The notes: generated by a model not told the origin, from the letters alone. Positions 30,955 through 47,612 are shown, numbered from the stretch's first letter. The stretch: 51,557 bases of DNA from Candidatus Woesearchaeota archaeon CG10_big_fil_rev_8_21_14_0_10_36_11 (GCA_002762845.1 PCYB01000066.1:1-51557); one strand, 5' to 3'. Made by a program: numbers and translations.

Positions 30955-32484
30955 ATGATTGATACAACAGCAATAAGGCAACAATTTCCATATTTACAGA
31001 GGTCACTTCAGATGGATGTGCGCAATCCGCGGACCGATACACCGCGCCATTTTATGGATAGTACCGCTTCGACACATTTACCTCTTCCAGTTCTTGAAAG
31101 AATTGCACAAAGTCTTTTCAGTTATGCCAATGTTCACCGAGGCGAATATGACGCATCAATGGCAACAACAGAAGAGTTTGAAAGGTCATATAATATTGCT
31201 GCAAACTTAGTTAATGCTCGTTCTTGGCGGGAAATAATTTTTGGAAGAAATGCAACAGACATGATTAATCTTGTACGGCGTGGAATGGAACGTCAAGTTC
31301 GCTCAGGAGATAATATAGTTGTTACTGCCCTTGAACATAATTCTAATTATGTTCCATGGGTCGAACTTAAAGCAACGTTAGCAGATTTTGGTCGAGAGGT
31401 AGACATTCGAATAGTTCCATTTGATCTTAAAACGGGAGAACTTAACATGTCTGAATTGAAACATCTTGTTGACAAGAGAACAAAATTGGTTGCTGTTACA
31501 GGTGCATCAAACTTTATGGGAGTCAAACCAGACGTTGCAACAATTGGTGAGATTGCACATGCAAGTGGATATGTACAACCAGACGGTTTTCAGGGGTCAT
31601 ACTTATTAGTTGATGGGGCACAACTTGTTCCAGGAAGTCCTGTCGATGTTCAGAATCTTGACTGTGATTTTTTAGCATGGTCATTTCATAAAATGGCATT
31701 ACCTTTGGGTGTTGGTGGTTTATGGGCTCGAAAAGAAGCAATTCAACATTTTGATCCTTACATATCTGGTGGGGATATGATTTTAGATGTTACACCAGAC
31801 GCTATTGAGTTTCAAGATTTACCTTGGAAATATACTGCAGGAACACCAAACATCTTAGGAGTTATAGGGACTGGATTTGGTATAGAATTTCTTATTTCCA
31901 TGGCTTTGGGCAATTTGTCTGAACATGATGAGATTGAACGTACTGGAAAACGTATTGAAACAGAAATCCTTTTGAACACGCCACGGGGAGATTTTGAATA
32001 TAGTTTGTATAATGTTGAAGAAAGACATCCCGCTGAGGTCGAACTCTTTGGGAGATATGTTGAAAGACATCATGATGTAATGGCAACTCTTCAAAATCCC
32101 CAGAAACGATTAGAGAAAACAAAACACGTTGTACGAACAGCGATGGAAAAGATTCAATATCACGAGCAGGAACTTACACAACGTGCAATTGACGGTCTTG
32201 TAACTATACCTGGGATAACTTTGTATGGTCCTACTGATGCGACACAAAGAACCGGCCTTATTGCATTTAATCTTGCAGGTATAGAACCAATGGCACTTGC
32301 ATTTGCATTAAACAGAGAAGGTGTTGAGGTGCGAAACGGTGTTCACTGTGCATCTCTTGCACATCATTATTTGGGGATTAGAGAAACTGGAAGTGTCAGG
32401 ATGAGTGTCTACGTACCAACAACACAAGATGAAGTTACTGCTGCAGTAGATGCAGTTACTAGGATACAAAAAAGATTACATTAA
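30955..32484 (+). CDS. Class V aminotransferase / SufS-CsdA-like cysteine desulfurase with a ~85-aa insertion
   Basis: ANVHRG, TALEHNSNYVPW, LVDGAQ, DCDFLAWSFHKM (PLP lysine), YTAGTPN and VRNGVHCASLAHHY (catalytic Cys). An insertion lies between GIEFLISMALG and HEQELTQRA. Confidence 0.85.
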   Translation: MIDTTAIRQQFPYLQRSLQMDVRNPRTDTPRHFMDSTASTHLPLPVLERIAQSLFSYANVHRGEYDASMATTEEFERSYNIAANLVNARSWREIIFGRNATDMINLVRRGMERQVRSGDNIVVTALEHNSNYVPWVELKATLADFGREVDIRIVPFDLKTGELNMSELKHLVDKRTKLVAVTGASNFMGVKPDVATIGEIAHASGYVQPDGFQGSYLLVDGAQLVPGSPVDVQNLDCDFLAWSFHKMALPLGVGGLWARKEAIQHFDPYISGGDMILDVTPDAIEFQDLPWKYTAGTPNILGVIGTGFGIEFLISMALGNLSEHDEIERTGKRIETEILLNTPRGDFEYSLYNVEERHPAEVELFGRYVERHHDVMATLQNPQKRLEKTKHVVRTAMEKIQYHEQELTQRAIDGLVTIPGITLYGPTDATQRTGLIAFNLAGIEPMALAFALNREGVEVRNGVHCASLAHHYLGIRETGSVRMSVYVPTTQDEVTAAVDAVTRIQKRLH

Positions 32485-32525: not shown

Positions 32526-34586
32526 ATGACAAACAGAAAAATTATTGGGGCAACAACTGCAGTTGCTACTACGATTGATGCGGCTAGTGCACACCACATT
32601 GAAAAGTTACTTGCATTAGATGCAGTTATACAAAGACCCAAATCTTTAGAAGATGTTCGTTTCATGGGTGATTCTTTGATTGCATCATTCGGATTAAACA
32701 TGGACAATCCAACATTACCTCCAGATATAGATAAAGGATATGCCACTGCCGTTTCTTTTTTAGAACGTATTTGTTCTGTCTTTGAAGATCCAACACATGT
32801 TATTAGGATGGCTCCTTTTGCACATGCGTACCTTGGAACTCAAGGTTTTAACGATGCACTTGACGTTATTCTTGATCGGGCCGAGAAATTTCCTAATGAA
32901 CAACCAATGCTTGATACTATTTTTCCTGCAACAGCTTTAGTACAACCTTCATCTCGTGAAGAGTTTTTACTCAGTGTATTAGGATATGCTGCGGGAGAGT
33001 TAGAAGGCGATGAACTTCTCGGTTTGGGCTTCTTAATTAGTGATGCCAATCCAAATGTTACATTCACTGATCCTGGAGAATTTCCTTCAGAGTTTCCAAC
33101 AAGTGATGTACGTGATGCTGCCCATCGTATAGGAACATTTCTTGAATCAGGATTCTTTATTCCAGGTGTTGGATTTACTGATGTCTATAAAACATTCAAA
33201 GAAAAAATGGGTGGAGATATTGAGTATATGTTTAAAGAACCTTTACCAGAACATATAGTGGTTGTTTCTCCTAGTGAAGAGAAGTTTACATTTTTACAGG
33301 ATGATAATACTGTTGAGTGGACACCATCATATGACGCGCGGCCAAATACAACACATGAAAATCCTACAATTGTTATTGTGAATGATATTGTTCCTCTTGA
33401 TGCAGTGCGTTGTGTGTATCGTAATTCAACTATTGTGTATGTTGCAGGAAATAAACTTGCACGTGATGCAATGATGTCTGAACTTGGACCTAGCGCGCAA
33501 GAATTATTAATCGATACAACTGTTGTTAATGATAAAGGAGCAAAAAATCGTGTTGCAAATCACTTGAGGTATATTAGAACTCGGCGAGATAATTCTGGGC
33601 TGGTTGACTTTCGTGATATGTTAAATGCAGATATAAATGTAGCAGAAGATTTTGTTGCTCGAGGAAATGAACATTTCTTTGATTTCCGTAGCTCATTTGA
33701 AGAATTAGGGCGGGAAGGTCGTATTGATGCTATGGTTGAAGAAAAAGGATACACTGTTCCAATTAAAACAAATAATGATCTTGTTATGCTTCTTTCTCAT
33801 ACAGAAAGAGATTTAAACCCATTTTTTGAAAATGTAACACCAAAAACAGTTCGTGCATATTCAGGAATACCAGATATTACAAAAACAGGAATGCCTTTTG
33901 CTATCCTTACTAATATGTCTGTTCCTCATGCAGACATTATAGCAGCATATCCCTCTGCAACAGTTTTGTACGTTGCGCGAGATGACTCGGAAGAAACACG
34001 TATTATGAAAGCAAATCCCAATGGTGACATCTTTGTTGTTAACACTCAAAGTGTGGAAAGAGTTGCTGGTGGAGGTCGAAATCGTGCAGGATATGCCATT
34101 GTTGAAATGTTTTTTGAACAAATTGCAGCAGGAAGAACTGAAGGTGTCACTGTCATGTCTGCAATTACAAAAAGGATTTCAGCAGGGATTAAAAAAGAGA
34201 GAGATGATATACTTTTTAAAGAAAGTCTTCCGGGCTTTGCAGGAACGGCAGCATCATATTGGCGATTACAGGAAAAGTATCGTGCGACACCACTCGTTGC
34301 ACAATTAACGGATGGTGTTCTTATGGAAACATGTCCTACGGGCGGTTGTTTCAAACTTAATCAACCAGAACAAGGCGGATGTTGTGGTGGTGGGAACCTT
34401 CCTGGTGTTCTTATTGATTTTGCAATTGCGTACCGAAAACAAGTTGGTGATGAAAAGTTCATTGCAGAACTACAAACTTTTCATGGTGGGAACAGAACTG
34501 CGCCATGGTATCTTGATACGCGAGAGTACAAAAGAGTATTCCCTGGCGGCATTGAACCGAAAAAGAAAGGGCGGTTTACATTTTAA
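32526..34586 (+). CDS. Hypothetical 686-aa protein with an internal ~75-aa duplication and a Gly/Cys-rich C-terminal motif
   Basis: No recognisable family. Repeats: IVIVNDIVPLDAVRCVYRNSTIVYVAG versus FAILTNMSVPHADIIAAYPSATVLYVAR. Tail: CPTGGCFKLNQPEQGGCCGGGN. Confidence 0.7.
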   Translation: MTNRKIIGATTAVATTIDAASAHHIEKLLALDAVIQRPKSLEDVRFMGDSLIASFGLNMDNPTLPPDIDKGYATAVSFLERICSVFEDPTHVIRMAPFAHAYLGTQGFNDALDVILDRAEKFPNEQPMLDTIFPATALVQPSSREEFLLSVLGYAAGELEGDELLGLGFLISDANPNVTFTDPGEFPSEFPTSDVRDAAHRIGTFLESGFFIPGVGFTDVYKTFKEKMGGDIEYMFKEPLPEHIVVVSPSEEKFTFLQDDNTVEWTPSYDARPNTTHENPTIVIVNDIVPLDAVRCVYRNSTIVYVAGNKLARDAMMSELGPSAQELLIDTTVVNDKGAKNRVANHLRYIRTRRDNSGLVDFRDMLNADINVAEDFVARGNEHFFDFRSSFEELGREGRIDAMVEEKGYTVPIKTNNDLVMLLSHTERDLNPFFENVTPKTVRAYSGIPDITKTGMPFAILTNMSVPHADIIAAYPSATVLYVARDDSEETRIMKANPNGDIFVVNTQSVERVAGGGRNRAGYAIVEMFFEQIAAGRTEGVTVMSAITKRISAGIKKERDDILFKESLPGFAGTAASYWRLQEKYRATPLVAQLTDGVLMETCPTGGCFKLNQPEQGGCCGGGNLPGVLIDFAIAYRKQVGDEKFIAELQTFHGGNRTAPWYLDTREYKRVFPGGIEPKKKGRFTF

Positions 34587-34618: not shown

Positions 34619-35470
34619 ATGGTAAATAAAAAAAACGATACAATCCCATGTGGATACTGGAAGGATGTACACGGAGATGTGCACACTTTACCCGCAGGCT
34701 TTTGGACAGATAGGGACGGAGTAATCCGAGATAGAAGAGATAATCCACGACTTCCTGATGGAAGGTCAAGTGCTTTAGATGTATTTGCAAATTTACATGC
34801 GTCAACAAGTTTCCCAGACCTCTCAGGTCCAGAATCTGCTAGAATACAAGAATATCGAGAACTGGCTTATTCATTGATTATTATTTGTGGTGGTCAAGCA
34901 CCATCAGTAGTATCTCCAGTTTCGCGATCGCAAGGAACGGAAATACTAACACCTGCTGAAAGAAATGGTTGTTTTACATTCGGTGGTTTAGAAGTACAAC
35001 TAGATAAAGAAGAGATTGATGTTAGTGGAAAACCACAAACGTTTAACCGAAATTCGCCACCTGATTGTGTTCCTCAACTTTTACAGTTAGCATACGCTAC
35101 CATGTGCAATTCTCGCGAATCATATTTCCGTACAAAATTTGTTGCTAGCAATAAACCTGCAGAAGTATCAATTCTCAGAACGCATTATTTTCCTTTTAGT
35201 CTACTAGATAAAATCGATTCTGACGGAGATCCTATTGGGAGAGATATTGAGGTAGGACCTGCTCTTATGGATCATGTTTTGGTGGGGGGTACAGGTGTCC
35301 GAAGGGCGTATGTTACTCTTATGCTCCTTGATGGTGGTAGAGTGATATCTCAGTTACAAAAATATGGTGAAGGTACAGAAAGGATAATTCGCGCTGACGT
35401 TTTTTACAAACCTGTCGATGGAGAAGAAATAAAGATTGTTCCTTTGTATGAAAAAGAGATCTTGTTTTAG
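34619..35470 (+). CDS. Hypothetical protein (283 aa)
   Basis: Intact ATG ORF in the same-strand block. No motif recognised. Confidence 0.6.
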   Translation: MVNKKNDTIPCGYWKDVHGDVHTLPAGFWTDRDGVIRDRRDNPRLPDGRSSALDVFANLHASTSFPDLSGPESARIQEYRELAYSLIIICGGQAPSVVSPVSRSQGTEILTPAERNGCFTFGGLEVQLDKEEIDVSGKPQTFNRNSPPDCVPQLLQLAYATMCNSRESYFRTKFVASNKPAEVSILRTHYFPFSLLDKIDSDGDPIGRDIEVGPALMDHVLVGGTGVRRAYVTLMLLDGGRVISQLQKYGEGTERIIRADVFYKPVDGEEIKIVPLYEKEILF

Positions 35471-35618: not shown

Positions 35619-36272
35619 ATGGTAACAACAACAAGGCCATGTGGAGACACTCGGCCAGAAGATAGAAAAGATGAAAAAACAGTTGAAGAGCAGAAATATA
35701 CCGTTGGAAATTTAGATCCAAATTTTCACGTTATTCTTGCACTGTTTCCTGGATGTGTTCAGGGTGGTCGAGTAGCAGTTGCAACGCGGGGAGACGATAG
35801 GCACGTTCTTTTAGACGGAACAGCTCAACAAATTGTTGAATATGGTGTAGGAAAGCAAGTAACTATCGAGGGTGTAAAATATTCTCGAAACGTTAGTGCA
35901 AGAGCGCAACCTGCAGTTGACGGTATCATTGCTGAAATGACGGGAACTGGCGAAGTTGCAAAACTCATTGAAGAAACTGGTAAAAAGACAGGGAAAGGTG
36001 CTCAGTTTGGTGGGTACACTGTTACAGTTCATGCAAAAGCTGCCGATGGTACTGAAGTAAAAGAACGTGTTACTTTAGGTTCTAAAGTAAATCAGTACTT
36101 CCGTCCAGATAGTGTTCTGAAAGATGATGTTAAAAGGGAGTTCCTCGGCGGAGTAGAACTGATGGTATCTGCAATCATCATACCTGGAAGTTCCAATGAC
36201 AAAAATGTTTTAGGAACTGAAAGCACTTCTAGCTATTGTGCAAAGGGTACCATTGACTACAAACTAGCATGA
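35619..36272 (+). CDS. Hypothetical 217-aa protein; candidate ubiquitin-like modifier precursor (speculative)
   Basis: Intact ORF with GAGG 13 nt upstream. Internal ...VKREFLGG (GG at nt 36147-36152) is followed by a 39-aa tail. The stop overlaps the next start (ATGA). Confidence 0.6.
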   Translation: MVTTTRPCGDTRPEDRKDEKTVEEQKYTVGNLDPNFHVILALFPGCVQGGRVAVATRGDDRHVLLDGTAQQIVEYGVGKQVTIEGVKYSRNVSARAQPAVDGIIAEMTGTGEVAKLIEETGKKTGKGAQFGGYTVTVHAKAADGTEVKERVTLGSKVNQYFRPDSVLKDDVKREFLGGVELMVSAIIIPGSSNDKNVLGTESTSSYCAKGTIDYKLA

Positions 36273-37735
36273 AAACATTAACAACGTTTTTGGAAAGGAT
36301 AGCTGAGAGGGGGCTTTCTTTTGTATTGCATGGAAGTCGTCTTTACGATTTCGTCGATACCGAGAAGTATCCGGATAATGTTCGTGTTGGCGGTTTTCAT
36401 CAATCATTAGTTCCCTCACTTTCTTTTTCTCATCTTGAACGTTTTGATGTTGATATGCAAGTAAGACCAATTCATACTCACTGTACCGGATATGTGAAAG
36501 ATACTGTCAATGCAGAACTGAAAGCAGAAGAAGAGTTACTCTCAGAAAAAGGGCGGATACACACTTTAGAATTTATCATGTATGAATTGTTACCTTTAAT
36601 CGTGAGCAAGAAATACGGTGCTGATAGTAGCATTTACCACGACGAAATTAATGCTGCTCTTGATGACTTAGAAGGGGGTACAGGAAAAACTTCTGGTGTT
36701 GAAATACAACAGGATAGATTTGTTCAAACAGCAAAAGAAGAGATACGAGCACAACTCGCACAGGATTTTGGAACTGACGATACGGTGGAAGAAAATCCAA
36801 GTGAACGATTACGTGCCATCGTATTGCAAAGAGAAAAACAATCTCTTAGTCGTGATCCTTTAGTTCCATTGTTATATACTCCCGAAGAAATTGGTATAGT
36901 TGAAGATGGTATTTCTTCATCACTGTTTGGAGAAATAACAGGTAACCAAGCATTATATGTTATTAATGGAAATGTCTTTCAGTTAGTGATACGAGACCAA
37001 CATGATGATGGTGCAGATAGTGTTGACAGTGAACTTGTTTTTACTGTTAACGGAAGGGAGTACGTTCCTGGTAAGAAAGTTACTGACATAGCAACACTTT
37101 CTTCAGAATATAAACAGCGCCGGGTAAAATTATGGCGTATTGCTGCCCTTGAAAAGAGTAAAGATGCGTTTGATATCATTAGAAATATAGTGAGAGAAGA
37201 TGGAGTAACACAAAGGCAAATGCATGAACTTGCAAAAAGAGAAGAGTATGATATTTCAGGTAGTGGTTTTATTTTAAGAGAAGGACACTATTATGTATAC
37301 ACAACAGTAAACAAATTTGCAACTCAAGATGGACGAAATGGTGATGTATTTTGGCCATTTCCTACAACACGTGTTGCTATTCAAGTTGGATCCAATGGTG
37401 GTGTACATTACGTTACTAGAGAAGTTTACGTTGTAGAACAGCGAGAACATCACCCCTGTATTCGTGAGAGAATGAGGCCTAGTGGATTTGGTTCATTATG
37501 TAACCTTAAAGATAGCAATTATGGAAAAACGCCCGCAGAGATGGTCCGTAGACTAAATGCTGGCGTAAATGTTGTTAGAGAGCCACTTAATCAAATCAGT
37601 CTTGATAAACATCCCGGGTACACATATTTTTATGTACATCTTGATGATATTTTAACTCAAGGTTCTTTGACACGTGCTGATGCAAGAGCACAGGGATATG
37701 ATGTTATTGAGGTGTTAGAAAAAAAAGTGACATAA
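36269..37735 (+). CDS. Hypothetical 488-aa protein; C-terminal region with UBC/E2-like motif pattern (speculative)
   Basis: The C-terminal ~150 aa show predicted-strand-like runs followed by EHHPCIRERMRPSGFGSLCNLKD and then a helix-like TPAEMVRRLNAGV. This resembles the HPN...Cys layout of E2 enzymes. Confidence 0.6.
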   Translation: MKTLTTFLERIAERGLSFVLHGSRLYDFVDTEKYPDNVRVGGFHQSLVPSLSFSHLERFDVDMQVRPIHTHCTGYVKDTVNAELKAEEELLSEKGRIHTLEFIMYELLPLIVSKKYGADSSIYHDEINAALDDLEGGTGKTSGVEIQQDRFVQTAKEEIRAQLAQDFGTDDTVEENPSERLRAIVLQREKQSLSRDPLVPLLYTPEEIGIVEDGISSSLFGEITGNQALYVINGNVFQLVIRDQHDDGADSVDSELVFTVNGREYVPGKKVTDIATLSSEYKQRRVKLWRIAALEKSKDAFDIIRNIVREDGVTQRQMHELAKREEYDISGSGFILREGHYYVYTTVNKFATQDGRNGDVFWPFPTTRVAIQVGSNGGVHYVTREVYVVEQREHHPCIRERMRPSGFGSLCNLKDSNYGKTPAEMVRRLNAGVNVVREPLNQISLDKHPGYTYFYVHLDDILTQGSLTRADARAQGYDVIEVLEKKVT

Positions 37736-37800: not shown

Positions 37801-39744
37801 ATGACAACACATGACAACTCTGGAAATGATATAGGACCAATAAATGCTACTGCTGCACTTACTCCAGCAACTACTACTACTACTGTTGGTTCTGCTGCCA
37901 CTCCCGTTACTTCTACTCCTTCCGCTGCTTCTGCAGGTACTCCTGTTACTCCTGTTACTGATTGTCCGACCGGAATATGCCCATTACCAACACCGCCTCG
38001 AGACGACGATGAGTTATTCGATCTTCTTGATGATGCCGCGGCAGAACAAAGTTTGAGTGCATACAAACTTGTTCCCAATCCTTTAATAATTAGTAAGAGA
38101 TGTTTGGCTTTAGGCCATATGATTGGCGAAATAACGCGAGATGTTGACGGCGAGGGAGTGGGAAAAGGAAAAGGTCGAAACTTAGAAGTTGGCGGTTTTT
38201 ATCTTATTGACGGTGGAGACGATACATTTACTTTATGCGATTTTATCGTTCCAAACGACCTTCCCGTATCGCAAGGAAATATTGTTGTTGCAGAGCAATT
38301 TCCTATGGCTGGACTTGAACTACGGACACACAACGAAACTCAAGGAACAGACCTACGTATGGCAGCAATGTTTCATATCCACCCTACACTTGTTGGTGGG
38401 TTAGCTCATAGTTCTGCAGACGATGCTGCTCTTACGAGTCTAGTTAATAAAATGAAGGGGGCGACAGAACGATCGTATCCAGAACCATTTAGACTTATAG
38501 ATCGGTTGGCTGATAAAGTAAAGGAATACACACCTGAGGGCCAGATTATCAAAGGCGATGCGTTCAAAGATGTTGTACAAAAATTTATATTTCCTAACGA
38601 TGGAGCGTTCTACGCATTGTTACAACATTTTGGATTTCATCCGGATAAAAAATATTTCCAGAAACAAGAATTTTTAGCTCGGCTCCTTGACACTGTTGAC
38701 ATTTCTCTTGAAGAACCAAGAGTTGTTCATTTCGCGGCAAGTTTTGTGTTTAATTATACTACAAATGGGCCTTTTGTTAAAATGGGTATTGGTGAACGTC
38801 GACTCTTTACGGGAGAAAAACCAATAGTGTACACATCAGATGTTCCTCTTCAAGTTATTGATTTGGGAGAACCAATGCCAACAGAAGCAGAAGTTGCACA
38901 ATTAGTACGTGAAAGGATACGCTTTCCACCTCGACCAAAAGTATTTACAAGAACTAGAAGTAAATCTGCAAGAGGCGGTGGTTCTAGTTTACCCACGGGA
39001 TATCCTCCCGATGCCACGAGTTATCAGTCTCATGGCGACACATGGAGACAACAATGGGGTCCAGTTCAACCCACTTCTCCTTGGCTACAAGGTCAAGGTG
39101 CCTCTAATGCGTCAGGCGGTCCAGTAACTCCAAAAAGACAAACTGACGATAAAGTTACAGATAAAAACTATCGTTTGACCGAGATTGCAGATTTGTTTAC
39201 ATTAGCTGCACATTCTTATGTTCTCGAATGGCGACACGATGACTGTAAGTTTTCTGAATACCTTGACGATGTATTAACTTCAATAGACCGTTTCTCTCTT
39301 CAACAAGGATATGGGGTTTCTACCATTTCTGGAGGTACGAGACAACCGTCGCCCGTTTTTGGTTTTCGTGAAGCTGTAAAATATACTGGTCCAATTAGTG
39401 ATGATCCTTTGAAAGAAGTATTTACGCCACGATTTGCTTTCTATCACGCGAGTGGAGTTGCCAAATGTATCTCTGCAGGACTTAAAGAAAATCCTGATGA
39501 TAATGCGACTATTCAGTTCATGTTTAGGTTTATTTATGGTAGTACAGACTCACGGAATACAGCCTTACAAAGATATGTTACACAAGTTGCAGGGGAATAT
39601 GTTCCTTTACCGCAAAGTTTAGAACAAATTGAACCTACTGCTCACGTGCTTGGCACTCAAGAATTGTCAGATTTAAGCCTTACAACAATATATAATGGTG
39701 CACTAGACGATTTAGGTGATTCAACGGATAAAAATGAAGAATAA
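37801..39744 (+). CDS. JAB/MPN+ (JAMM) metallopeptidase-domain protein with low-complexity N-terminus and long C-terminal extension
   Basis: NLEVGGFYLIDGG (conserved Glu) and about 60 aa later MFHIHPTLVGGLAHSSADD (HxH...SxxD). The N-terminal ~60 aa are Thr/Pro/Ala/Ser-rich. Confidence 0.75.
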   Translation: MTTHDNSGNDIGPINATAALTPATTTTTVGSAATPVTSTPSAASAGTPVTPVTDCPTGICPLPTPPRDDDELFDLLDDAAAEQSLSAYKLVPNPLIISKRCLALGHMIGEITRDVDGEGVGKGKGRNLEVGGFYLIDGGDDTFTLCDFIVPNDLPVSQGNIVVAEQFPMAGLELRTHNETQGTDLRMAAMFHIHPTLVGGLAHSSADDAALTSLVNKMKGATERSYPEPFRLIDRLADKVKEYTPEGQIIKGDAFKDVVQKFIFPNDGAFYALLQHFGFHPDKKYFQKQEFLARLLDTVDISLEEPRVVHFAASFVFNYTTNGPFVKMGIGERRLFTGEKPIVYTSDVPLQVIDLGEPMPTEAEVAQLVRERIRFPPRPKVFTRTRSKSARGGGSSLPTGYPPDATSYQSHGDTWRQQWGPVQPTSPWLQGQGASNASGGPVTPKRQTDDKVTDKNYRLTEIADLFTLAAHSYVLEWRHDDCKFSEYLDDVLTSIDRFSLQQGYGVSTISGGTRQPSPVFGFREAVKYTGPISDDPLKEVFTPRFAFYHASGVAKCISAGLKENPDDNATIQFMFRFIYGSTDSRNTALQRYVTQVAGEYVPLPQSLEQIEPTAHVLGTQELSDLSLTTIYNGALDDLGDSTDKNEE

Positions 39745-39786: not shown

Positions 39787-41340
39787 ATGACAAACGCTGA
39801 CACTCTTGTAATCGAAGAAGAACGGTATGACAGACAGAAATTGCTCTGGGGTGATGCTGGTCAAGATAGACTTAAGAATGCACGAGTGTCCGTTATAGGA
39901 TTAGATTTTCAGGGAAAATACGTTGCACTTTGTCTTGCAGCTCTTGGTGTTGGTAATGTAGTTCTTATTGATGGCAAAAATACAATCGAAGAAGAGGAAC
40001 GTGGCACATTTATGGGTACTCCCGTTTCCCATGGTTCTCGAGCATTAGCATATGCAGAACTTCTTCGTCGTGTTAATCCTCAAATACGCGTTGAAGGATA
40101 TCCAACAGACTTAGTTTCACGAATTGATCAAGATACATTAACTGGTTCAACAGTTATTGTTGATGCAACAAATATGGTTACATCAAAAAGAAATGCAATC
40201 CTGTTTGGTCATGAACATCATATCCCTGTGTTAAGTACATCTTCCCAATGGGGATATACAAAACTTGTACGGTGCGATTCCGAATCTCATGATCTAGCAT
40301 ATCTTATGCCTATGTTTGAAGGAAATGAGCAGGACGAATTAATGGCATTACTTATGTGCGGTGTTACGACTGAAGAAGTTCGTAAACTTATCTTTAATGA
40401 TAAAGATATTCTGCAAAAACCAGTTAGATACCGGCTTGGCGACGGATATCGTTTTGGATTCCCGAAAGAAGGAGAAATGGCTCCTCGACCTGATGCGACT
40501 AAATACGCTGATCTTCGTGTTGCATTCCTTGGCGCAGGCGCTATTGGATGTTGGGGCGCGATTGCTGCAGCAAAAATGGGCATTGACCGTGTTGACGTGT
40601 TTGATTACGATACGTTTGATTCAACAAATATTAACAGACAGGTATTAGGTTTTGACGGTGTTGGAGAACTGAAAGCAGTTCATATTGCAAAAAAGATTGT
40701 GGAAATGAGTTTAGGGAGAACACACTCTGATGGATTTAACGTAAAGATTCTTCCTGGATTTGAAACAGAACGGGAATATGATGTTGTATTCGACTTTGTT
40801 GATAATCCTTACACTCGTGCATTGAACACTGCACACGCAATTTCACATAATATACCAATGATAAGTTCAGGAGCACTTCCATATAGTGCGCGGTCAATAA
40901 CACAAGTTGCTGGAAAGACATTCTGTCAAGATTGTCTTTATCAGATTTATGATCGGGGTAGACAGGATGAAATGATTCGACGTGCAAGTTGTGCAGCCAA
41001 TCCTGACCCCTCGGTTGTCATGAGTAATGCTGTTGCAGGTGCACTTGCTGTACTTGAAATTTTTACGTTAGTTGAACCTGAAAAGTATGGGGTACCGTTC
41101 AGCGGAGAAATTATGTACCGTTCATCTGCTCCAACGAGGTTTGGTGCGGAGGGACTAACGGGTGCATGTGATTGTTATTCCAATCCTGTTCCGCAATTGG
41201 AAATATCGGATGAAGATGTTGCAGCATTTGCTAATGCAATTCCTCACGTACTTACGGGAGGATTAGTAGAAACTGAAAGAAAAGAAGGGAGAGGATTAGA
41301 AAGAGGATTAGAAGTGCTTACTGTTGAGCAACCAGAATGA
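39787..41340 (+). CDS. Tandem ThiF/MoeB-type E1-like adenylyltransferase (degenerate N-terminal plus intact C-terminal adenylation domain)
   Basis: Repeat 1: VSVIGLDFQGKYVALCLAALGVGNVVLIDG ... IVDATNMVTSKRN (nucleotide loop degenerate). Repeat 2: VAFLGAGAIGCWGAIAAAKMGIDRVDVFDYDTFDSTNINRQ ... VFDFVDNPYTRALN. Cys motifs CQDC and CDC are also present. Confidence 0.8.
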   Translation: MTNADTLVIEEERYDRQKLLWGDAGQDRLKNARVSVIGLDFQGKYVALCLAALGVGNVVLIDGKNTIEEEERGTFMGTPVSHGSRALAYAELLRRVNPQIRVEGYPTDLVSRIDQDTLTGSTVIVDATNMVTSKRNAILFGHEHHIPVLSTSSQWGYTKLVRCDSESHDLAYLMPMFEGNEQDELMALLMCGVTTEEVRKLIFNDKDILQKPVRYRLGDGYRFGFPKEGEMAPRPDATKYADLRVAFLGAGAIGCWGAIAAAKMGIDRVDVFDYDTFDSTNINRQVLGFDGVGELKAVHIAKKIVEMSLGRTHSDGFNVKILPGFETEREYDVVFDFVDNPYTRALNTAHAISHNIPMISSGALPYSARSITQVAGKTFCQDCLYQIYDRGRQDEMIRRASCAANPDPSVVMSNAVAGALAVLEIFTLVEPEKYGVPFSGEIMYRSSAPTRFGAEGLTGACDCYSNPVPQLEISDEDVAAFANAIPHVLTGGLVETERKEGRGLERGLEVLTVEQPE

Positions 41341-41438: not shown

Positions 41439-44400
41439 ATGGCAGAAGAAATTATACAAATGTTAAAACTTAAAGAACAAGAAAGAACTAAAGAACTAGA
41501 AATACTTCCTATACTCGATATTCCTCCTGCACTTGATGACGATGACAGTTTTTTTGATGAAGATGACTTAGCAGATATGTTTAATCGCGCAAGTGAAACA
41601 AATCTTTTTGGTGAAGAAGAAGAGGTTGTTACTGTTGTCGCTCCTCCATATGATCCAGTTAAGAAAATAGCAGCTATTTTGGAACTGGATGATGGTCGTA
41701 CAAAAAGAGATCCAGTAACATTCAATCCTAATCCTGTTCGTAATATGGTTTTTAACGCGTTGACAAGGAATGTTCTTCCAACAACATTTAAGGGCAGTCC
41801 TTTGGATAGTGATGGGCCAGTTTCTGATTTAGCAAGCGGAATATTGGTAGCTGAAAGTGCACTACGCCATTTTTCTATAAAAGAAACTGTTGATGGTGCC
41901 AGTTCCGCAGAAGGATATTTCCAAGAGGTTTCATGGAATTTAGGTACGCGAATGCAAAGATTGTTAAATCTTGAACTTGAGACAATGGAAGAACTGGGAT
42001 TGACATTATTAGAACGAGCAGGGTATGCATTTAATGCTGCATCACTTCGATATATCGATCTAAAAACAGGAAGATTTTTCTCTCGCGAAAAAGTACTTGA
42101 TGACATAGAACAACTTACTCTTGTTACAAATCCTACATTTATGAAGCGTGTTGGAATATATTACAGTACTCTTGGAAAACGATATATAAATGCCAGAATA
42201 AAAAAGTTTGTTTCTCGTGAAAGTGCACGAGATATGTTAGAACTTGGCGGCTCCATTAGAATTGCATCAGAGCTTACACTTGAAGAATCTGTTCAAATAC
42301 ACGGTAGGAAAAGAGTTGTGGAAAGAACAGAAACGTATCAAGATGTATTCTTTGAAGGGTTTCATCCTGAGACTTCTATTGTCGCTGATACCGTTGCTCA
42401 TATTCTTACTGGATACGAAGACCGTTTACGCTACGTTACTTCCTTTGATGAACTTGCAGATTTAACAACACTTTGTCTTGGCATTGGTTTAGTTACTGAT
42501 GAAACAACTGCCCAAGCTTTACGTACCTATGCTCTTGATCATTCTGTTGATGCGAGAACACTACTTTTGCGAACGTTCGCTACTGTTGCACAGCAGGATG
42601 GTTTTTTTCAGGACATGAAAATTGATGATGTATTATCACGATACGAAATTGGTTTACACTCAAGAGCAACATATACAAAAAATATGGTCCGTGAACTGGA
42701 CGAGTTACGTGGAAGAACATTTAATTTTAACGTATTAGCAGAACAAATTGTGACACGGTTAGAAGAAGAAAAAGGAGTTGTCCTTTCACTTCCTTCAATT
42801 TACGGTGAAGACGATTTTGATAATTTTTGTACCAGAATTACCGACTTTAATGTCCCTCTGTATGAAATTGTTTCTGATGATACGTTCGGCGCTTTACGAG
42901 CACAGTACGGAAAGATTCAATATGAATTTGAACAAAGTGATGTTAGAGCAAAAAAAGCTCGTGATGCCGTTCCTGTGGGCCATTCCTCATTAGGAGAAAA
43001 AGTGTTACAACAATTACACAGAAAGTACGGGCTTGATGTGGAACAAAGACAATTTGAATCCTATGAAGTATATAAAGAACAATCTGCAGAATTAATACAA
43101 GTTGTAAGGGGAATAATTCAAAAAACATTGGATGATGTTGTTACAGTTATTCCAAAAAAGTTAGGCGTTGACGTTCGTGTTAAATCTCTTGGTCCTATAA
43201 AAAGAAGAATAAGATATCTTCACGGGGGAGAAATCCATGACGTGCCTATTGGAAGCACAGGTACAGTTACAGGAATAAGAAAAGAAGGAACTTACACTAC
43301 TATCTTTGTTGCATTTGACCATCGTACTCATCACACTGATTGGTATACAGATCCTAAAGAGTTAGAGATTATTGCTAGTGATACTATTCCTTCTGAATTA
43401 CGTGGCGTTCTTAAAGAATTTGACGGCGATACTGAACGTGCTGCTGCCAGTATTATTAGCTCACTTGAACAGGAGATTAATTATGTATATCGAGAACAAG
43501 AGTTTAGAAGAATTAATGATGAACATATTGCACAACAAAAAGTAATCGCTGCAAAAATGTCCACTCTCTTTTTTGATAATGGAAAAAGAGTTATGCGAAC
43601 ATTTAGGGCATTAGGAATTGGGGAGTACAAGTCTAGAGAAACCAACACTCATCGTGTTCCTTTGGGAACTATTGGGCTTCCTGAGAGATACACCGGCGAC
43701 GGTTTTTTTGATGTTACATTTCCAATTCGAGACAGAAGAGGAAAGATTCATATTGATGAAATGCAACTTTTACGAAAAGTAGATGTTTCACCACGGTCAA
43801 TGATCGGTGCCCGTGCTCAAATTACTCAAGAAACAAATGAGGGAGATTATAAACTGGGAAGTTGGGGTATAGTAACTGGCACAGATGGAATTTCCCTGAG
43901 AGTACAATTTAAACATATTGAAGGAAAAGAGACTCAAGACGATTTACCTTGTGTATGGATACGTAGTCGGTATCTTACACTTAAATATGACGATATTGAA
44001 TGGAGAAAAACAGTTAATAAAACAACAAACAATCTCTTTGACAGTATTGAACAGACTGTACGTGATGTCCAGCGTGAATATAAACAGGTACAAAATCGCA
44101 AACGTGAATTAGTTGAATTAGGAGTGTCTCACTTCCGTGCAATAGGTATTGAAGATACAATCATACATATTCTTTTTGAGGATTGTCTTACCAATGAGGA
44201 TTTTGTGACGTATGTAAATAATGGTCTTCTTTCATCAGAAAGTGTGTTCGACGAAATTGAGACTGAACTAGATAGTTTAGGCGGCGAAGAGGAATATAGT
44301 GGTTTAGCTACTAAAATTAAAACTCAAGTTCAAGAAAAGATGGGACTCATATGGAGCGATACAACAGAAATTACTGGCGAAGAAACATATCAAACATTTA

Positions 44401-45158
44401 AAGATACACTTGTTGAATCGATAGTACAGAGGGGGTATATTATTTCAAAAGAAGGTACTGCAATCCCTAAAACTATCAAAAAGAGAACTCCCGTTCTTTT
44501 TGTAAAGGGATATGATGGAATTCCGGAAGGATCTTTTGGAATATTTAAAGAGTGGTGTGAAGGTGTGGGAGGGAACAATGTTCATGTTGATGGAACAACG
44601 AATGGGAACAATTGTTGTATCCCTAAAAATTGCTTAGTAACTGATGTCGTTCCTCTATTTACTTTACGTGATAACATTGATGATCTTACAAAAGGTGCAT
44701 ACAAAAGAGGCGTTAAAGTACGGCTCAGGATGGACAGCCAGTATGCATATCAACATGCAGGTGTTGGAGTTCTTGAAGAAGATTTAGAAGGAGAGGATAC
44801 AGAATATTATGGAGATGTATGTTTTGAAGGCGGGTACGTTAATGCATACAGAATAAAAGATTTAGAACTTGTCAATCCTCAAGATGTGTTACAGGGAAAA
44901 CAATTGCAATTGTATCAAAAAGCAATGCAAGAAAGAGAAACAAGAAAAGAAGAAATCCGGCGTGGTGTTGAATCAATAATTCAGGAAATAGAACGGGAAC
45001 GTAATCAACGCTATCAGAAAGTGCACGACTTATCTGTTGCTGTCCGAGACGAGTTACGGTCGTTTGGAAAAACAGACACAGAGATATACGAAGTATTTGA
45101 ACAACACATTTCTGAAACTTCTTACTTAACATACCGAGGAATATTAGATGTTGCATAA
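41439..45158 (+). CDS. Hypothetical 1239-aa protein with acidic N-terminus and at least 5 repeated beta-barrel-like modules
   Basis: Intact ORF. Repeats fall at about nt 43221-43379, 43650-43784, 43809-43991, 44484-44648 and 44709-44876. No catalytic motif recognised. Confidence 0.75.
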   Translation: MAEEIIQMLKLKEQERTKELEILPILDIPPALDDDDSFFDEDDLADMFNRASETNLFGEEEEVVTVVAPPYDPVKKIAAILELDDGRTKRDPVTFNPNPVRNMVFNALTRNVLPTTFKGSPLDSDGPVSDLASGILVAESALRHFSIKETVDGASSAEGYFQEVSWNLGTRMQRLLNLELETMEELGLTLLERAGYAFNAASLRYIDLKTGRFFSREKVLDDIEQLTLVTNPTFMKRVGIYYSTLGKRYINARIKKFVSRESARDMLELGGSIRIASELTLEESVQIHGRKRVVERTETYQDVFFEGFHPETSIVADTVAHILTGYEDRLRYVTSFDELADLTTLCLGIGLVTDETTAQALRTYALDHSVDARTLLLRTFATVAQQDGFFQDMKIDDVLSRYEIGLHSRATYTKNMVRELDELRGRTFNFNVLAEQIVTRLEEEKGVVLSLPSIYGEDDFDNFCTRITDFNVPLYEIVSDDTFGALRAQYGKIQYEFEQSDVRAKKARDAVPVGHSSLGEKVLQQLHRKYGLDVEQRQFESYEVYKEQSAELIQVVRGIIQKTLDDVVTVIPKKLGVDVRVKSLGPIKRRIRYLHGGEIHDVPIGSTGTVTGIRKEGTYTTIFVAFDHRTHHTDWYTDPKELEIIASDTIPSELRGVLKEFDGDTERAAASIISSLEQEINYVYREQEFRRINDEHIAQQKVIAAKMSTLFFDNGKRVMRTFRALGIGEYKSRETNTHRVPLGTIGLPERYTGDGFFDVTFPIRDRRGKIHIDEMQLLRKVDVSPRSMIGARAQITQETNEGDYKLGSWGIVTGTDGISLRVQFKHIEGKETQDDLPCVWIRSRYLTLKYDDIEWRKTVNKTTNNLFDSIEQTVRDVQREYKQVQNRKRELVELGVSHFRAIGIEDTIIHILFEDCLTNEDFVTYVNNGLLSSESVFDEIETELDSLGGEEEYSGLATKIKTQVQEKMGLIWSDTTEITGEETYQTFKDTLVESIVQRGYIISKEGTAIPKTIKKRTPVLFVKGYDGIPEGSFGIFKEWCEGVGGNNVHVDGTTNGNNCCIPKNCLVTDVVPLFTLRDNIDDLTKGAYKRGVKVRLRMDSQYAYQHAGVGVLEEDLEGEDTEYYGDVCFEGGYVNAYRIKDLELVNPQDVLQGKQLQLYQKAMQERETRKEEIRRGVESIIQEIERERNQRYQKVHDLSVAVRDELRSFGKTDTEIYEVFEQHISETSYLTYRGILDVA

Positions 45159-45179: not shown

Positions 45180-47612
45180 ATGACACAAAAAACTGTTATC
45201 TCAACGGCAACTAGCGTAAATCTCACAGAAAGTACTATTCCTAACACTCCTCCTGATATCTTTGCACCATTACTAAAGACTGTGTACCAACTTGTAGCAC
45301 GGGATTATATTGATACCATTTTTTATTTATTAGGCGATACACCCTCTCGCGTACAGTTAGCTTCTCAAATTCCTAACATTCATACAGATGCAGACTTTGC
45401 CACTTTTTTATCTTCATTACCTTCGGCAACAGAACTTGCCGACATTGTAAAGCAAGACATTCGTGCTGAGTACGCAACGCTTGATACTGTTCTTGCAGAA
45501 AACGAAACACGACGTGCAACTGCATTGGCCGGTGCACAGATAGACTTTTCTGAATACGTTCCCGTATTACTTGAAGCAATAAATCGTCAATTACAAGTTT
45601 CACTTCCTTCTCCTAAAAGAGGTATAACTACCAAGGACGGTTTTGATACTTACCGAAGTACATTGGAAGGCCACGTATCTGATGCTATCACTGCAAAACT
45701 TACTTCTCCTTTTGGAAACGGTATGCGTATCGGCGATATTCTTACTGTAACGCGAATGTCAGGTCTTACTATTGACGATGATGGTGAGATGGCAGATGAG
45801 TTTCATTATGGTGGAAACCAAGACGATATTCCTCTTGGTCTTGAGGGCGAACTTGTCAATATCATTGGAAAAGATTCCGTTTTCGTTCGTTTTACTCGTG
45901 ATGGCGACGTAAAAGAATGGCAATTTTATCCCGACGAAATTACAAGTACTGGCAGAAATACGTACCAGGAATATCTTACCAAATTTGGTGGCGATGTAGG
46001 CCAAGCAGCCTCAACAGTTATTGCTACTGCTGAATTTCGTCTTATTTCTGAATATCTTCAAAGAGCACAAGAACGAGTTAATAACGTATTTGATGCAAAT
46101 GTTAGTTACATTTCAGATAGTATCCGAAGACGGTTTGCTCTTACCGACGATCAACTTACTGCCCTTGTTGCTGGTGATGACTTTGAGTACACCATTGACG
46201 ATGTAAAAGAAGGCGGACAAGTTGTCATTCCATTTGAAAGGTTGGCAGTCTTAGCATATCGGGCTTTAACTCACAAACTTGGTAAAGACACGAAACGTCC
46301 AAATCAGAGAATTGTAAGCGAAGCCGATTTTAGGCGTTTTATATCTGATTCAGCAATAAAATTGCGTGCAGGTGAAGATACATTCGATTTAGTTAAAGAA
46401 CAAATGAAAACTCTTGCAGTTTTACTCGAAAAAGAATATAGTGTTGTTGGCAGAAGGATGGTCCAGGAGAGTAAAGAAACACAACTAGGACGGGTTTTAG
46501 ATTTAGCAATTGAATCTTGGATTGATAGAGAACATCAAAGTGGTTGTTTAGGCGTCAAATATTCGTTTGATAGGGCATTATTGTACAATGATAGAAAAGT
46601 ATACACTGCTGAACCTTTCTCACCGCCATCAGAGGAGCTACATAGAGTTATCAAACTAGAAATGGGAAATGGTTGTAGTTATGCTAAATGCACGTATTGT
46701 ACAGAATATGGGCAGGCACGTTTCTTTTTACGGTCTCCTGACGACTTTAAAGATCATGTGCAGGAAGTAAAAAGAAAATTAGGAAGAGACATTAAGAATG
46801 TTGAAAGAGTATTTTTGGCTGGAGGGAGTATCCTATCTATTCCAACTAAAATACTTATTCAATATGTTGATATTGCCAGGAAGGCATTTCATAATCAACG
46901 AACAGATGGAGACAGAACGTATATTAGACGAATTGCTGCGTTTACGCGAACAGAAGGGCTAGCACGGAAGTCAGTACAAGAATTGGACGAACTGGTTAGT
47001 CATGGACTTAATATGGTTTTCTGGGGTATTGAAACGGGCGCTGATTCTGTTTTACAGTATGTTAACAAGGGAATTACTCACGACGAAATGATTGCTGCCG
47101 GATCAAAAATGCCACATACTCGAATGGAAGTTTCAACGATGGTAATGACTGGTCTTGGTGGACTTAAACATTATGAGAATCATGTTGTTCAAACTGCTAA
47201 ATTATTAAATGCTCTTCAGCCGCGATATATAACGTTTATGACGATAAATGCTCAACCTCATTCAATGTATGCTCATATCATGGCAGGAGAACAGGCTCGG
47301 GGAGAAAATATGCCCCTTACACCAGAGATGGTAGTCGAACAAATGTATGATATCGTGAGTCTTATTGACCCAAGATTATGGTCTGGTCGTCGTTGTTTAG
47401 TCGCTGCGTATCAATTACCTGTAGAACGAATTGCTGAAAATCCTGTACAATTTCGTGGCAGGTTAGAATATAATGACAAAACTACAATTTTGAGAGGGTT
47501 ACAAGATTACTTTACACGTGGTAGGACACCCAGTGAACTTGTTCCTGTAGCAGAATTTAATCAGAAAAGTCCTTTGAGAAGAATGGTGGTGGGAGACACT
47601 CCGATTGAATAA
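45180..47612 (+). CDS. Radical SAM enzyme with ~480-aa N-terminal extension paralogous to the preceding giant protein
   Basis: GNGCSYAKCTYCTEYG (CX4CX2C, nt 46674-46700), VFLAGGSIL, and FWGIETGADSVLQYVNKG. The N-terminal region carries a barrel-like module and the FGGDVGQAAS segment shared with 41439..45158. Confidence 0.75.
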   Translation: MTQKTVISTATSVNLTESTIPNTPPDIFAPLLKTVYQLVARDYIDTIFYLLGDTPSRVQLASQIPNIHTDADFATFLSSLPSATELADIVKQDIRAEYATLDTVLAENETRRATALAGAQIDFSEYVPVLLEAINRQLQVSLPSPKRGITTKDGFDTYRSTLEGHVSDAITAKLTSPFGNGMRIGDILTVTRMSGLTIDDDGEMADEFHYGGNQDDIPLGLEGELVNIIGKDSVFVRFTRDGDVKEWQFYPDEITSTGRNTYQEYLTKFGGDVGQAASTVIATAEFRLISEYLQRAQERVNNVFDANVSYISDSIRRRFALTDDQLTALVAGDDFEYTIDDVKEGGQVVIPFERLAVLAYRALTHKLGKDTKRPNQRIVSEADFRRFISDSAIKLRAGEDTFDLVKEQMKTLAVLLEKEYSVVGRRMVQESKETQLGRVLDLAIESWIDREHQSGCLGVKYSFDRALLYNDRKVYTAEPFSPPSEELHRVIKLEMGNGCSYAKCTYCTEYGQARFFLRSPDDFKDHVQEVKRKLGRDIKNVERVFLAGGSILSIPTKILIQYVDIARKAFHNQRTDGDRTYIRRIAAFTRTEGLARKSVQELDELVSHGLNMVFWGIETGADSVLQYVNKGITHDEMIAAGSKMPHTRMEVSTMVMTGLGGLKHYENHVVQTAKLLNALQPRYITFMTINAQPHSMYAHIMAGEQARGENMPLTPEMVVEQMYDIVSLIDPRLWSGRRCLVAAYQLPVERIAENPVQFRGRLEYNDKTTILRGLQDYFTRGRTPSELVPVAEFNQKSPLRRMVVGDTPIE

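Follow-up and report, generated by a model that had tools for sequence, protein, structure and literature searches.

What is encoded by the two adjoining genes at positions 35,619 to 37,735 of a 51,557-nt stretch of DNA (PCYB01000066.1:1-51557; the whole stretch is called the window below) from a metagenome-assembled genome (MAG) of Candidatus Woesearchaeota, a lineage of the DPANN archaea? The products, of 217 and 488 aa, carry only the annotation 'hypothetical protein' in the database (COV17_03635 and COV17_03640). An earlier note, made from the sequence alone, proposed that they are the ubiquitin-like protein (Ubl) and the E2 of the JAMM/E1 gene pair immediately downstream, and the results presented here support this reading in part. 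We regard it as somewhat probable that the two genes belong to a DPANN cassette of the Ubl-conjugation type, the core of which consists, in this order, of a Ubl precursor, an E2-like enzyme, a JAMM metalloprotease and an E1. The gene order, its conservation, the identity and architecture of the E1, the JAMM motif, an invariant cysteine in the 488-aa protein and the conserved position of a terminal glycine in the 217-aa protein are directly shown by the sequences. The main concrete result is a re-mapped maturation site of the Ubl candidate.

The gene pair itself is as the earlier note described it, and the conservation of its GG among close orthologues and of its C411 across the family (see below) shows that these features did not arise by chance. 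The 217-aa ORF (35619-36272, + strand) carries LGG at residues 176-178, with the GG codons at 36147-36152; ...DSVLKDDVKREF comes before the GG, and another 39 residues come after it. The TGA stop of this ORF and the ATG of the 488-aa ORF (36269-37735, + strand) overlap as ATGA at 36269-36272. The same overlap is found at loci L001 and L022 and at no other orthologous locus; in L003, L005 and L007, gaps of 20-80 nt are found instead, and the overlap is therefore not conserved. In the 488-aa protein, YYVYTTV, DVFWPFPTTRVAIQV and VHYVTREVYVV are followed by EHHPCIRERMRPSGFGSLCNL and then by TPAEMVRRLNAGVNVV; the first codon positions of C397 and C411 are 37457 and 37499, respectively.

Both genes are part of an 8-gene operon whose order is a cysteine desulfurase (SufS), a 650-690-aa protein, the Ubl candidate, the E2 candidate, the JAMM protein, the E1, an 820-1240-aa protein and a radical-SAM enzyme (756-810 aa). 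The synteny comparison shows this order to be strictly kept in 10 or more different MAGs of DPANN archaea, at protein identities of 30-60%, and a Ubl orthologue lies upstream of the E2 candidate in every locus examined. The flanks of the operon vary among genomes, and some loci add B12-binding radical-SAM genes. In distant relatives, a minimal cassette is found that contains only a 113-137-aa Ubl, the E2 candidate, a JAMM-like protein and the E1, and neither SufS nor the radical-SAM enzyme. This implies that the core function is independent of both. In the bacterial BilABCD system, an antiviral operon of the ISG15-like type, the genes for Ubl, E2, JAB and E1 follow one another in that order, the E1 joins an inactive adenylation domain (IAD) to an active adenylation domain (AAD), and the JAB enzyme pre-processes the Ubl (Chambers et al., PMC10557695; summarised in PMC11601596). 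The composition of the minimal cassettes, together with the HSHx7SxxD motif of their JAMM-like protein, indicates that the core unit has the components and the gene order of BilABCD.

Some of the cassettes adjoin genes of the defence-island type. An MmeI-like restriction-modification enzyme and ArdC are found at positions 1-4600 of L005, an AAA ATPase and a ResIII/DEAD helicase lie beside the cassette of L019 (14700-19700), and paired nucleotidyltransferase genes lie beside that of L020 (130-2600). Judged from such neighbours, there are hints that the minimal cassettes could be antiviral, as Bil is.

The E1 is the best recognised member of the cassette. The 517-aa protein (39787-41340, + strand) matches the Pfam family ThiF (PF00899, E = 2e-42) in two stretches and comprises an IAD at about aa 8-160 and an AAD at about aa 233-446. 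The IAD (aa 8-160) is most similar to inactive subunits or domains of eukaryotic E1s, namely NAE1, SAE1 and the IAD of UBA7 (E ~1e-9), and its nucleotide loop is degenerate; the AAD (aa 233-446) matches MoeB, Uba4 and SAE2 (E = 1e-13 to 1e-10) and is collinear with the 249-aa MoeB, residues 241-446 of the query corresponding to residues 30-227 of MoeB. The motifs GAGAIGCWG, NINRQ and DFVDN and the zinc cysteines CQDC (380) and CDC (461) are present and conserved, as is the crossover-loop Cys402, which lies about 20 residues past CQDC in a short loop. PADLOC matches this protein only, and does so through Cap2-type 'E1-E2' models. As far as domain matches can tell, the tandem IAD-AAD arrangement is the E1 architecture of BilABCD and of eukaryotes.

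The JAMM assignment of the 647-aa protein (37801-39744, + strand), which has a long C-terminal extension, comes from motif conservation. The candidate JAMM/MPN+ metal-binding motif HIHPTLVGGLAHSSADD covers aa 192-208 (38374-38424), with the catalytic Glu129 at 38185-38187, and the residues E129, H192, H194, P195, H203, S204, D207 and D208 are invariant in 11 orthologues. In distant homologues, the exact motif HSHx7SxxD is accompanied by sub-threshold Pfam matches to JAB (E = 0.09) and to Prok-JAB, for which E is 0.0037 and the bit score of 17.6 stays below the cut-off of 25. On the other hand, the 647-aa protein has no Pfam match and no meaningful one in NCBIfam, PADLOC or PHROGs, the 11 close orthologues do not match the JAB or Prok-JAB profiles even at E <= 10, and sequence and profile searches of the PDB with the family returned nothing. 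A second motif, CPxGxC (aa 55-60; 37963-37980), lies near the N terminus and is conserved in most orthologues.

The company of SufS and radical-SAM enzymes raises another reading of the same genes, in which the cassette is a pure sulfur-carrier pathway. The 217-aa protein would be a carrier of the ThiS/MoaD type whose C-terminal Gly, after trimming by the JAMM enzyme, would be adenylated by the E1 and thiocarboxylated with sulfur from SufS, so that it could act as a sulfur donor for a radical-SAM-dependent biosynthesis or modification; the 488-aa protein would not be an E2 but, by virtue of its invariant Cys411, a persulfide relay or scaffold. A Ubl, an E1, a desulfurase and a radical-SAM enzyme also act together in the thiamin and molybdopterin pathways, and SufS, the Cys-motif proteins and the radical-SAM enzyme are strictly syntenic with the cassette in at least 10 MAGs. 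The active half of the E1 is nearest to MoeB and Uba4, and its crossover loop is short; such an E1, like that of the MoeB, ThiF and Uba4 type, fits sulfur transfer as well as conjugation. In addition, the SufS-linked Ubls carry the (near-)invariant residues Cys8 (35640-35642) and Cys46 (35754-35756), in CGDxRPEDRK and YPGCIEGDR, as well as helical insertions. These conserved extra cysteines are confined to the SufS-linked Ubls, and both they and the insertions are absent from the 113-137-aa Ubls of the minimal cassettes, a distribution which suggests, at the level of sequence, a sulfur- or metal-related function gained together with SufS. The lack of statistical support for the E2 assignment (see below) also favours a sulfur carrier. 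However, the trio of E2 candidate, JAMM protein and E1, with a small Ubl, exists in distant relatives that have neither SufS nor the radical-SAM enzyme, the IAD-AAD type of E1 is otherwise known from conjugating E1s, and the HP...Cys motif of the 488-aa protein fits an E2-like active site. We therefore take a pure sulfur-carrier pathway to be possible but unlikely.

The two uses may also be joined. The occurrence of SufS, a Cys-motif protein and a radical-SAM enzyme in one operon makes a thiocarboxylate fate of the Ubl possible, and C8 and C46 are consistent with such a fate. A single archaeal Ubl pathway could then serve both as sulfur carrier and in conjugation, bringing together a eukaryote-style IAD-AAD E1, an unrecognised E2-like thiol family of about 480 aa, SufS, Cys-motif relays and radical-SAM chemistry, and would represent a living intermediate between carrier systems for sulfur and systems for protein conjugation; this scenario is a tentative one, and we hold it to be rather doubtful.

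Where the Ubl candidate is matured is a question on which the sequences are more informative. The earlier note placed the cut after the internal LGG, with release of a 39-aa tail, and this placement is probably wrong. A confident AlphaFold2 (AF2) model of the 217-aa protein, built from an 11-sequence alignment (predicted local distance difference test score, pLDDT, 83; predicted template modelling score 0.79), contains one predicted strand, residues 171-189, which passes through the GG and has a pLDDT of about 90 after it. Among 16 close orthologues, GG is present at 177-178 in 15 and replaced by AG in one; conservation is no lower in the 12 residues that follow, VE[LM]xx[ST]AIIx[PS]G, and variation begins only past G190. 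This last strand (VELMVSAIIIP) together with Gly190 occupies 36153-36188, and E180, A185 and G190 are invariant in it.

The six 113-137-aa Ubls of the minimal cassettes, which align over the whole core of the 217-aa family, bear on this point. None of them has GG at the LGG site, and all keep a glycine at the G190 position, followed by a short, non-conserved tail; with a slash after the G190 position, their ends read ...KYLGVDLIVASEQTGG/LERSL, ...YQELELRIAATDVGAG/DLEKLL, ...KYMGLDLIIASKQTGG/YSRYA, ...YRQLDIEVSAVQQGG/LYD, ...YQEFMLVVAAKQTQG/YY and ...YHGVDLIVSSKQTGG/FQGLVARVYE. Taken over the family, glycine is found at this position in 22 of 22 members, as PG, SG, GG, AG or QG. The distance from G178 to G190 is 12 residues, as in the ...DGDxhxhxxxhxGG ends of ThiS, MoaD, SAMP1, CysO, Urm1 and MOCS2A (here and below, the ThiS/MoaD/SAMP/CysO/Urm1 reference sequences were entered by hand), and the Gly177-Gly178 pair (36147-36152) would thus be the equivalent of the 'DGD' turn before the last ThiS/MoaD strand and not a C terminus. 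The invariant glycine at G190, the variable tails behind it, the absence of GG from the small relatives and the ThiS/MoaD-like spacing together argue that the mature end is G190. Most likely, then, the mature Ubl ends in ...IIPG190, and the propeptide is 27 aa long, not 39.

The literal form of the earlier model, in which the JAMM enzyme cuts after LGG178, frees the 39-aa tail and leaves G178 to be activated, has become quite improbable. It draws on the GG of the 15 close orthologues and on the strand-like segment before it (VRYRGG, IRYMGG), which recalls LRLRGG; but residues 179-190 are conserved like the GG and continue the same strand, and the small homologues have only the distal glycine. 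The shift from G178 to G190 is of practical consequence, as it alters which constructs experimenters should make.

The proposed propeptide tail (SSNDKN...IDYKLA, residues 191-217; 36189-36269), which is presumably removed by the JAMM enzyme, is variable and disordered. In the AF2 model, residues 194-217 are disordered, with pLDDT below 50 from residue 194 onwards, and among the orthologues the tails after G190 differ in sequence and range in length from 2 to more than 40 aa. A weak terminal motif, [IL]-[DE]-x-x-[LI], recurs in otherwise unrelated tails (LDAKL, LDKYLR, LDKMLN, LEYRVR, LERSL, LEKLL), and the tail of the window ends in IDYKLA (36252-36269). One possible role of this motif is in docking to the JAMM protease or the E1.

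As to its fold, the 217-aa protein is probably a ThiS/MoaD-like beta-grasp Ubl with insertions. When the AF2 model was compared with the PDB by Foldseek, at least 12 of the top 30 matches were beta-grasp proteins, but with E values of 0.17-1.3 and TM scores of no more than 0.47; staphylokinase, superantigen domains and FERM F1, RA, DIX, RAWUL and PB1 domains are the beta-grasp entries that top the list. Comparison with viral structures (BFVD, Foldseek) gave nothing informative. The hhalign alignments of the Ubl families with the ThiS/MoaD/SAMP/CysO/Urm1 set are collinear and not significant (P = 0.074 with the large family, 0.16 with the small proteins), and P is 0.9 against ubiquitin, NEDD8 and SUMO. 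An upstream element of the family, T-h-x-VNG-x-x-V, resembles ThiS. No meaningful match was found in Pfam, NCBIfam, PADLOC or PHROGs, and sequence and profile searches of the PDB were likewise empty; a match to 7rdr (E = 1e-7, with no single stretch passing) is to a designed repeat protein and was treated as noise from the low-complexity N terminus. The predicted fold, synteny and the collinear 113-137-aa homologues support the 217-aa protein as the best Ubl candidate for the downstream JAMM/E1 pair, made as a precursor. Another candidate for the true Ubl was rejected. This 81-aa ORF, whose product ends in ...ARGGEK, separates the E2-candidate gene from the JAMM gene in L003 (11431-11676); it is present only in L003 and L004 and absent from all other loci, and is probably outside the system.

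The 488-aa protein is the E2 candidate. An exhaustive hidden Markov model search shows that its family comprises 168 representatives at 50% identity, far more than a word-based search had implied; a scan of viral contigs found no relatives. The protein is built of two repeat modules, aa 4-59 (36278-36445, + strand) and aa 216-281 (36914-37111, + strand), which match each other by hhalign (probability 96.8%, E = 2e-10), and of a C-terminal domain with the HP...Cys motif. Each repeat module is a beta-hairpin followed by long helices, and the modules might serve in target recognition or oligomerisation. A third beta-rich region was considered as a third repeat copy and rejected (hhalign P = 0.07-0.16).

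The candidate catalytic domain covers about 190 residues (aa 296-488; 37154-37732, + strand). The UBC (ubiquitin-conjugating) fold of E2 enzymes consists of an N-terminal helix, a four-stranded antiparallel meander, a flap and further helices, with the HPN motif followed by the catalytic Cys about 10 residues on. In the AF2 model of the 488-aa protein, which was built from five sequences, the predicted order (assigned by DSSP) is a helix at 299-322, four beta elements at 326-388, HP at 395-396, a short helix, the C411 loop, a helix at 422-437 and then three short helices. Conservation was measured on 153 representatives, the count at each site being of those that cover it. His395-Pro396 (37451-37456), the HPN-like flap, is His in 133/139 and Pro in 130/139 (~95%), and position 397 is Phe in 100 representatives and Cys in 18, so that the third residue of the flap is not Asn. 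Cys411 (37499-37501), preceded by I, L or V, is Cys in all 137 representatives and is the candidate catalytic residue. The His-to-Cys spacing is mostly 14 or 13 in the family and 16 in the window, against about 10 in UBC enzymes. Two cysteines had been put forward in the earlier note; C411 is conserved throughout, whereas C397 is Phe in most of the family and is rejected as the catalytic residue. The note had also made its reading depend on retention of the GG and of at least one of these cysteines: the GG is absent from the six small distant relatives and C411 is never lost.

Similarity to known E2 enzymes does not reach statistical significance. In the best local hhalign alignment of the C-terminal domain with six eukaryotic E2s, PF...HP...C lies opposite PY...HPN...C, gapless over 31 residues; across runs, the comparison with UBC gives P ~0.07-0.09, which is not significant. 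The conserved HP...Cys at the expected position and the Bil gene order bear out part of the E2 proposal, while a significant link to UBC is lacking. The E2 assignment rests on the motif, the predicted topology and the gene context, sequence similarity having been tested and found insignificant, and the unproven E2 fold is the main weakness of the reading as a whole.

Another reading is that the 488-aa protein is a Cys/His hydrolase or transpeptidase (like a deubiquitinase, or like an L,D-transpeptidase or sortase, with His ahead of Cys) that acts on the Ubl or its conjugates. Conservation throughout the family is limited to His395, Pro396 and Cys411, there is no significant UBC similarity, and the His-to-Cys distance, at 13-16, exceeds that of UBC enzymes and may recall His...Cys enzymes such as YkuD. 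But the cassette already has a peptidase in the JAMM protein, the predicted order of secondary-structure elements matches UBC, and no peptidase family was matched in Pfam, the PDB or Foldseek. Nor did a confident alternative fold, which the earlier note had named as a point that would count against it, emerge for this protein. The chance that it is such a hydrolase or transpeptidase is, in our estimate, slim.

A RiPP-like (ribosomally synthesised and post-translationally modified peptide) precursor, with the N-terminal domain as leader, GG as double-glycine cleavage site and VELMVSAIIIPG... as core modified by radical-SAM enzymes, is very unlikely, since, although GG is followed by a hydrophobic peptide, several radical-SAM and B12-binding radical-SAM genes and an E1-like enzyme are in the operon, and E1-like enzymes occur in RiPP pathways (MccB and PaaA are among the PDB matches of the E1), the 'core' is predicted as an integral strand, the same element is present in minimal cassettes without radical-SAM genes, the region after G190 ranges from 2 to more than 40 aa, and an IAD-AAD E1, a JAMM enzyme and an invariant-Cys protein are not RiPP hallmarks.

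Based on the results presented above, a mechanism may be proposed for the favoured reading of a Ubl-conjugation-type cassette, in which we infer the folds of the Ubl and E2 candidates and all chemical steps. The 217-aa ThiS/MoaD-like beta-grasp protein would be made with its disordered 27-aa tail, which the 647-aa JAMM protein would cut off after Gly190 (...AIIIPG). The active adenylation domain of the E1 would then adenylate Gly190, and the Ubl would be passed to Cys402 of the E1 and from there to the invariant Cys411 of the 488-aa protein for transfer to targets. The C-terminal domain of the latter would be an E2 of a non-canonical kind, in which HP[F/C] replaces HPN and the distance from His to Cys is 13-16 residues rather than 10, and targets could be chosen by its N-terminal repeat modules or by the 1239-aa SH3-repeat protein encoded after the E1. 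In the Woesearchaeota subfamily, the activated end of the Ubl may have a second or a different fate, conversion to a thiocarboxylate for sulfur chemistry by way of SufS, the CPxGxC proteins and the radical-SAM enzyme.

A number of results weigh against this reading. On the side of the Ubl, every Foldseek match of the 217-aa model has E > 0.1 (the best being 0.17) and none is significant, the link to ThiS/MoaD is not significant by profile either (P = 0.07-0.16), and Pro189-Gly190 is an unusual end for a Ubl. The E1 does not have the mobile CYS domain of about 80 aa found in BilD and in eukaryotic E1s, and in this respect is like MoeB, ThiF and Uba4. For the 488-aa protein, AF2 gave a model of mediocre quality, with a pLDDT of 69.6 overall and of only 35-46 in the HP...Cys loop (residues 391-417), its comparison with the PDB by Foldseek gave no match at E < 0.4, the protein has no match in Pfam, NCBIfam, PADLOC or PHROGs, phmmer and hmmsearch searches of the PDB were empty, and none of 60 family members matches any Pfam E2 model at E <= 1, or any Pfam family. 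For the gapless alignment with the eukaryotic E2s, P is 0.066, and its score was matched by 9 of the 100 E2 profiles with shuffled columns. Finally, we know of no precedent in conjugation systems for the tight linkage to SufS and radical-SAM genes.

Operons of Ubl, E2, JAB and E1 are known from bacteria (Bil, Bub/6E and CBASS-Cap2), from Caldiarchaeum and from Asgard archaea; our literature searches found no such operon described for DPANN archaea. Current family libraries fail to detect three of the four core proteins, although the family of the E2 candidate by itself comprises about 170 representatives at 50% identity. If the proposed reading is true, the locus would provide one E2-like and one Ubl family that are new, and the eukaryote-like IAD-AAD design of the E1 would be known not only from bacteria but also from DPANN archaea. 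The linkage to SufS and radical-SAM genes would then be a testable case for a connection between the sulfur-carrier and conjugation roles of beta-grasp proteins.

The remaining genes of the operon are better or worse recognised by family models. The first gene (30955-32484, + strand) encodes a SufS-type cysteine desulfurase (Pfam Aminotran_5, E = 3e-91; NCBIfam SufS, E = 2e-99). It is followed by a conserved 686-aa protein (32526-34586, + strand) with an invariant C-terminal CPxGxC at aa 603-608 (34332-34349), for which searches of Pfam, NCBIfam, PADLOC, PHROGs and the PDB gave no match. The CPxGxC motifs of this protein and of the JAMM protein might form a persulfide-relay or metal site that links the SufS and Ubl sides of the operon. 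Between the 686-aa and Ubl genes, the window, alone among the operons examined, has a 283-aa ORF (34619-35470, + strand) with no family match, and the A-rich gap after it, before the Ubl gene, is unusually long at 148 nt and may hold an internal promoter.

Downstream of the E1 lies the large syntenic protein (41439-45158, + strand), of 1239 aa here and 822-1243 aa elsewhere, with weak SH3-like repeats; its weak repeated matches are to Xrn1 SH3_12, Mind-bomb SH3_15, the HECTD1 MIB domain and PsaE, and Pfam, NCBIfam, PADLOC and PHROGs held nothing more meaningful for it. It is possibly an adaptor, an E3-like component or a target. A similar protein, of 948 aa, follows the E1 in the minimal cassette of L017. 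The last conserved gene of the operon, supported by synteny, encodes an 810-aa radical-SAM enzyme (45180-47612, + strand; Pfam Radical_SAM, E = 1.5e-9) whose cysteine motif is CX4CX2C (CSYAKCTYC, aa 499-507; 46674-46700) and not the usual CX3CX2C; its N-terminal region of about 480 aa has no recognised fold, and its weak PDB matches include proteins of the Elp3 family. Elsewhere in the window, at 19486-22944 on the - strand, an 1152-aa STT3/AglB oligosaccharyltransferase is fused to a C-terminal PpiC-type peptidyl-prolyl isomerase domain, and this gene is surrounded by glycosyltransferase, PMT_2 and UbiA genes.

Compared with known systems, the cassette shares with BilABCD the same four components in the same order, the lack of an encoded E3 and a C-terminal extension of the Ubl that is removed by a JAB enzyme to expose a glycine, the last of these being a proposal for the window. 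It differs from BilABCD in its host, a DPANN archaeon, and in that the Ubl, the E2 candidate and the JAMM protein have no detectable Pfam or PADLOC similarity. Here the length is about 480 aa for the E2 candidate and about 600 aa for the JAMM protein, the E2 candidate carries two additional repeat modules and the signature HP[F/C]-x(10-13)-Cys, the E1 is without the CYS domain of about 80 aa, and the cassette is located inside a SufS/radical-SAM operon.

With the ThiS/MoaD/SAMP/Urm1 carriers, it has in common a predicted carrier of the beta-grasp type whose end follows the pattern 'VNGxxV ... G-x(11)-G', a MoeB/Uba4-like adenylation domain with a crossover-loop Cys, a JAMM enzyme that would be able to expose the glycine, and a cysteine desulfurase and radical-SAM enzyme nearby. 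In the CysO-Mec+ and QbsE-QbsD systems, the carrier is trimmed by a JAMM enzyme, and the SAMP and Urm1 systems combine conjugation and sulfur roles. On the other hand, these systems have no E2-like partner, their E1s are homodimeric and single-domain, and their carriers, of 66-100 aa, end in GG, whereas the carrier here is 176-340 aa long, contains insertions and has PG followed by a tail at its end, and a protein with an invariant Cys is always adjacent.

The Bub/6E systems resemble the present one in a JAB enzyme that cuts the Ubl precursor after a single conserved glycine, in diverse Ubl architectures with N-terminal additions and in non-canonical catalytic residues; they differ by Ubl-E2, JAB-E1 or E2-E1 fusions, the serine protease DUF6527 and oxyesters formed without a catalytic Cys (PMC11601596), whereas separate genes are found here, with a conserved Cys in both the E1 and the E2 candidate. 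The eukaryote-like E1-E2-RING-Rpn11 operons reported from Caldiarchaeum subterraneum and Asgard archaea (PMC5654768, PMC3082918) are likewise archaeal operons of Ubl, E1, E2 and JAMM genes; their ubiquitin, UBC and RING proteins are recognisable by sequence, which is not the case for the present families, and no RING protein is encoded in the present operon. The DPANN host, the large E2-candidate and JAMM proteins that family models fail to recognise, the proposed PG-plus-tail end of the Ubl and the linkage to SufS and radical-SAM genes set the present system apart from BilABCD, the carrier systems and Bub/6E alike. Taken together, BilABCD is the closest known system, followed by the ThiS/MoaD/SAMP/Urm1 carriers and then by Bub/6E.

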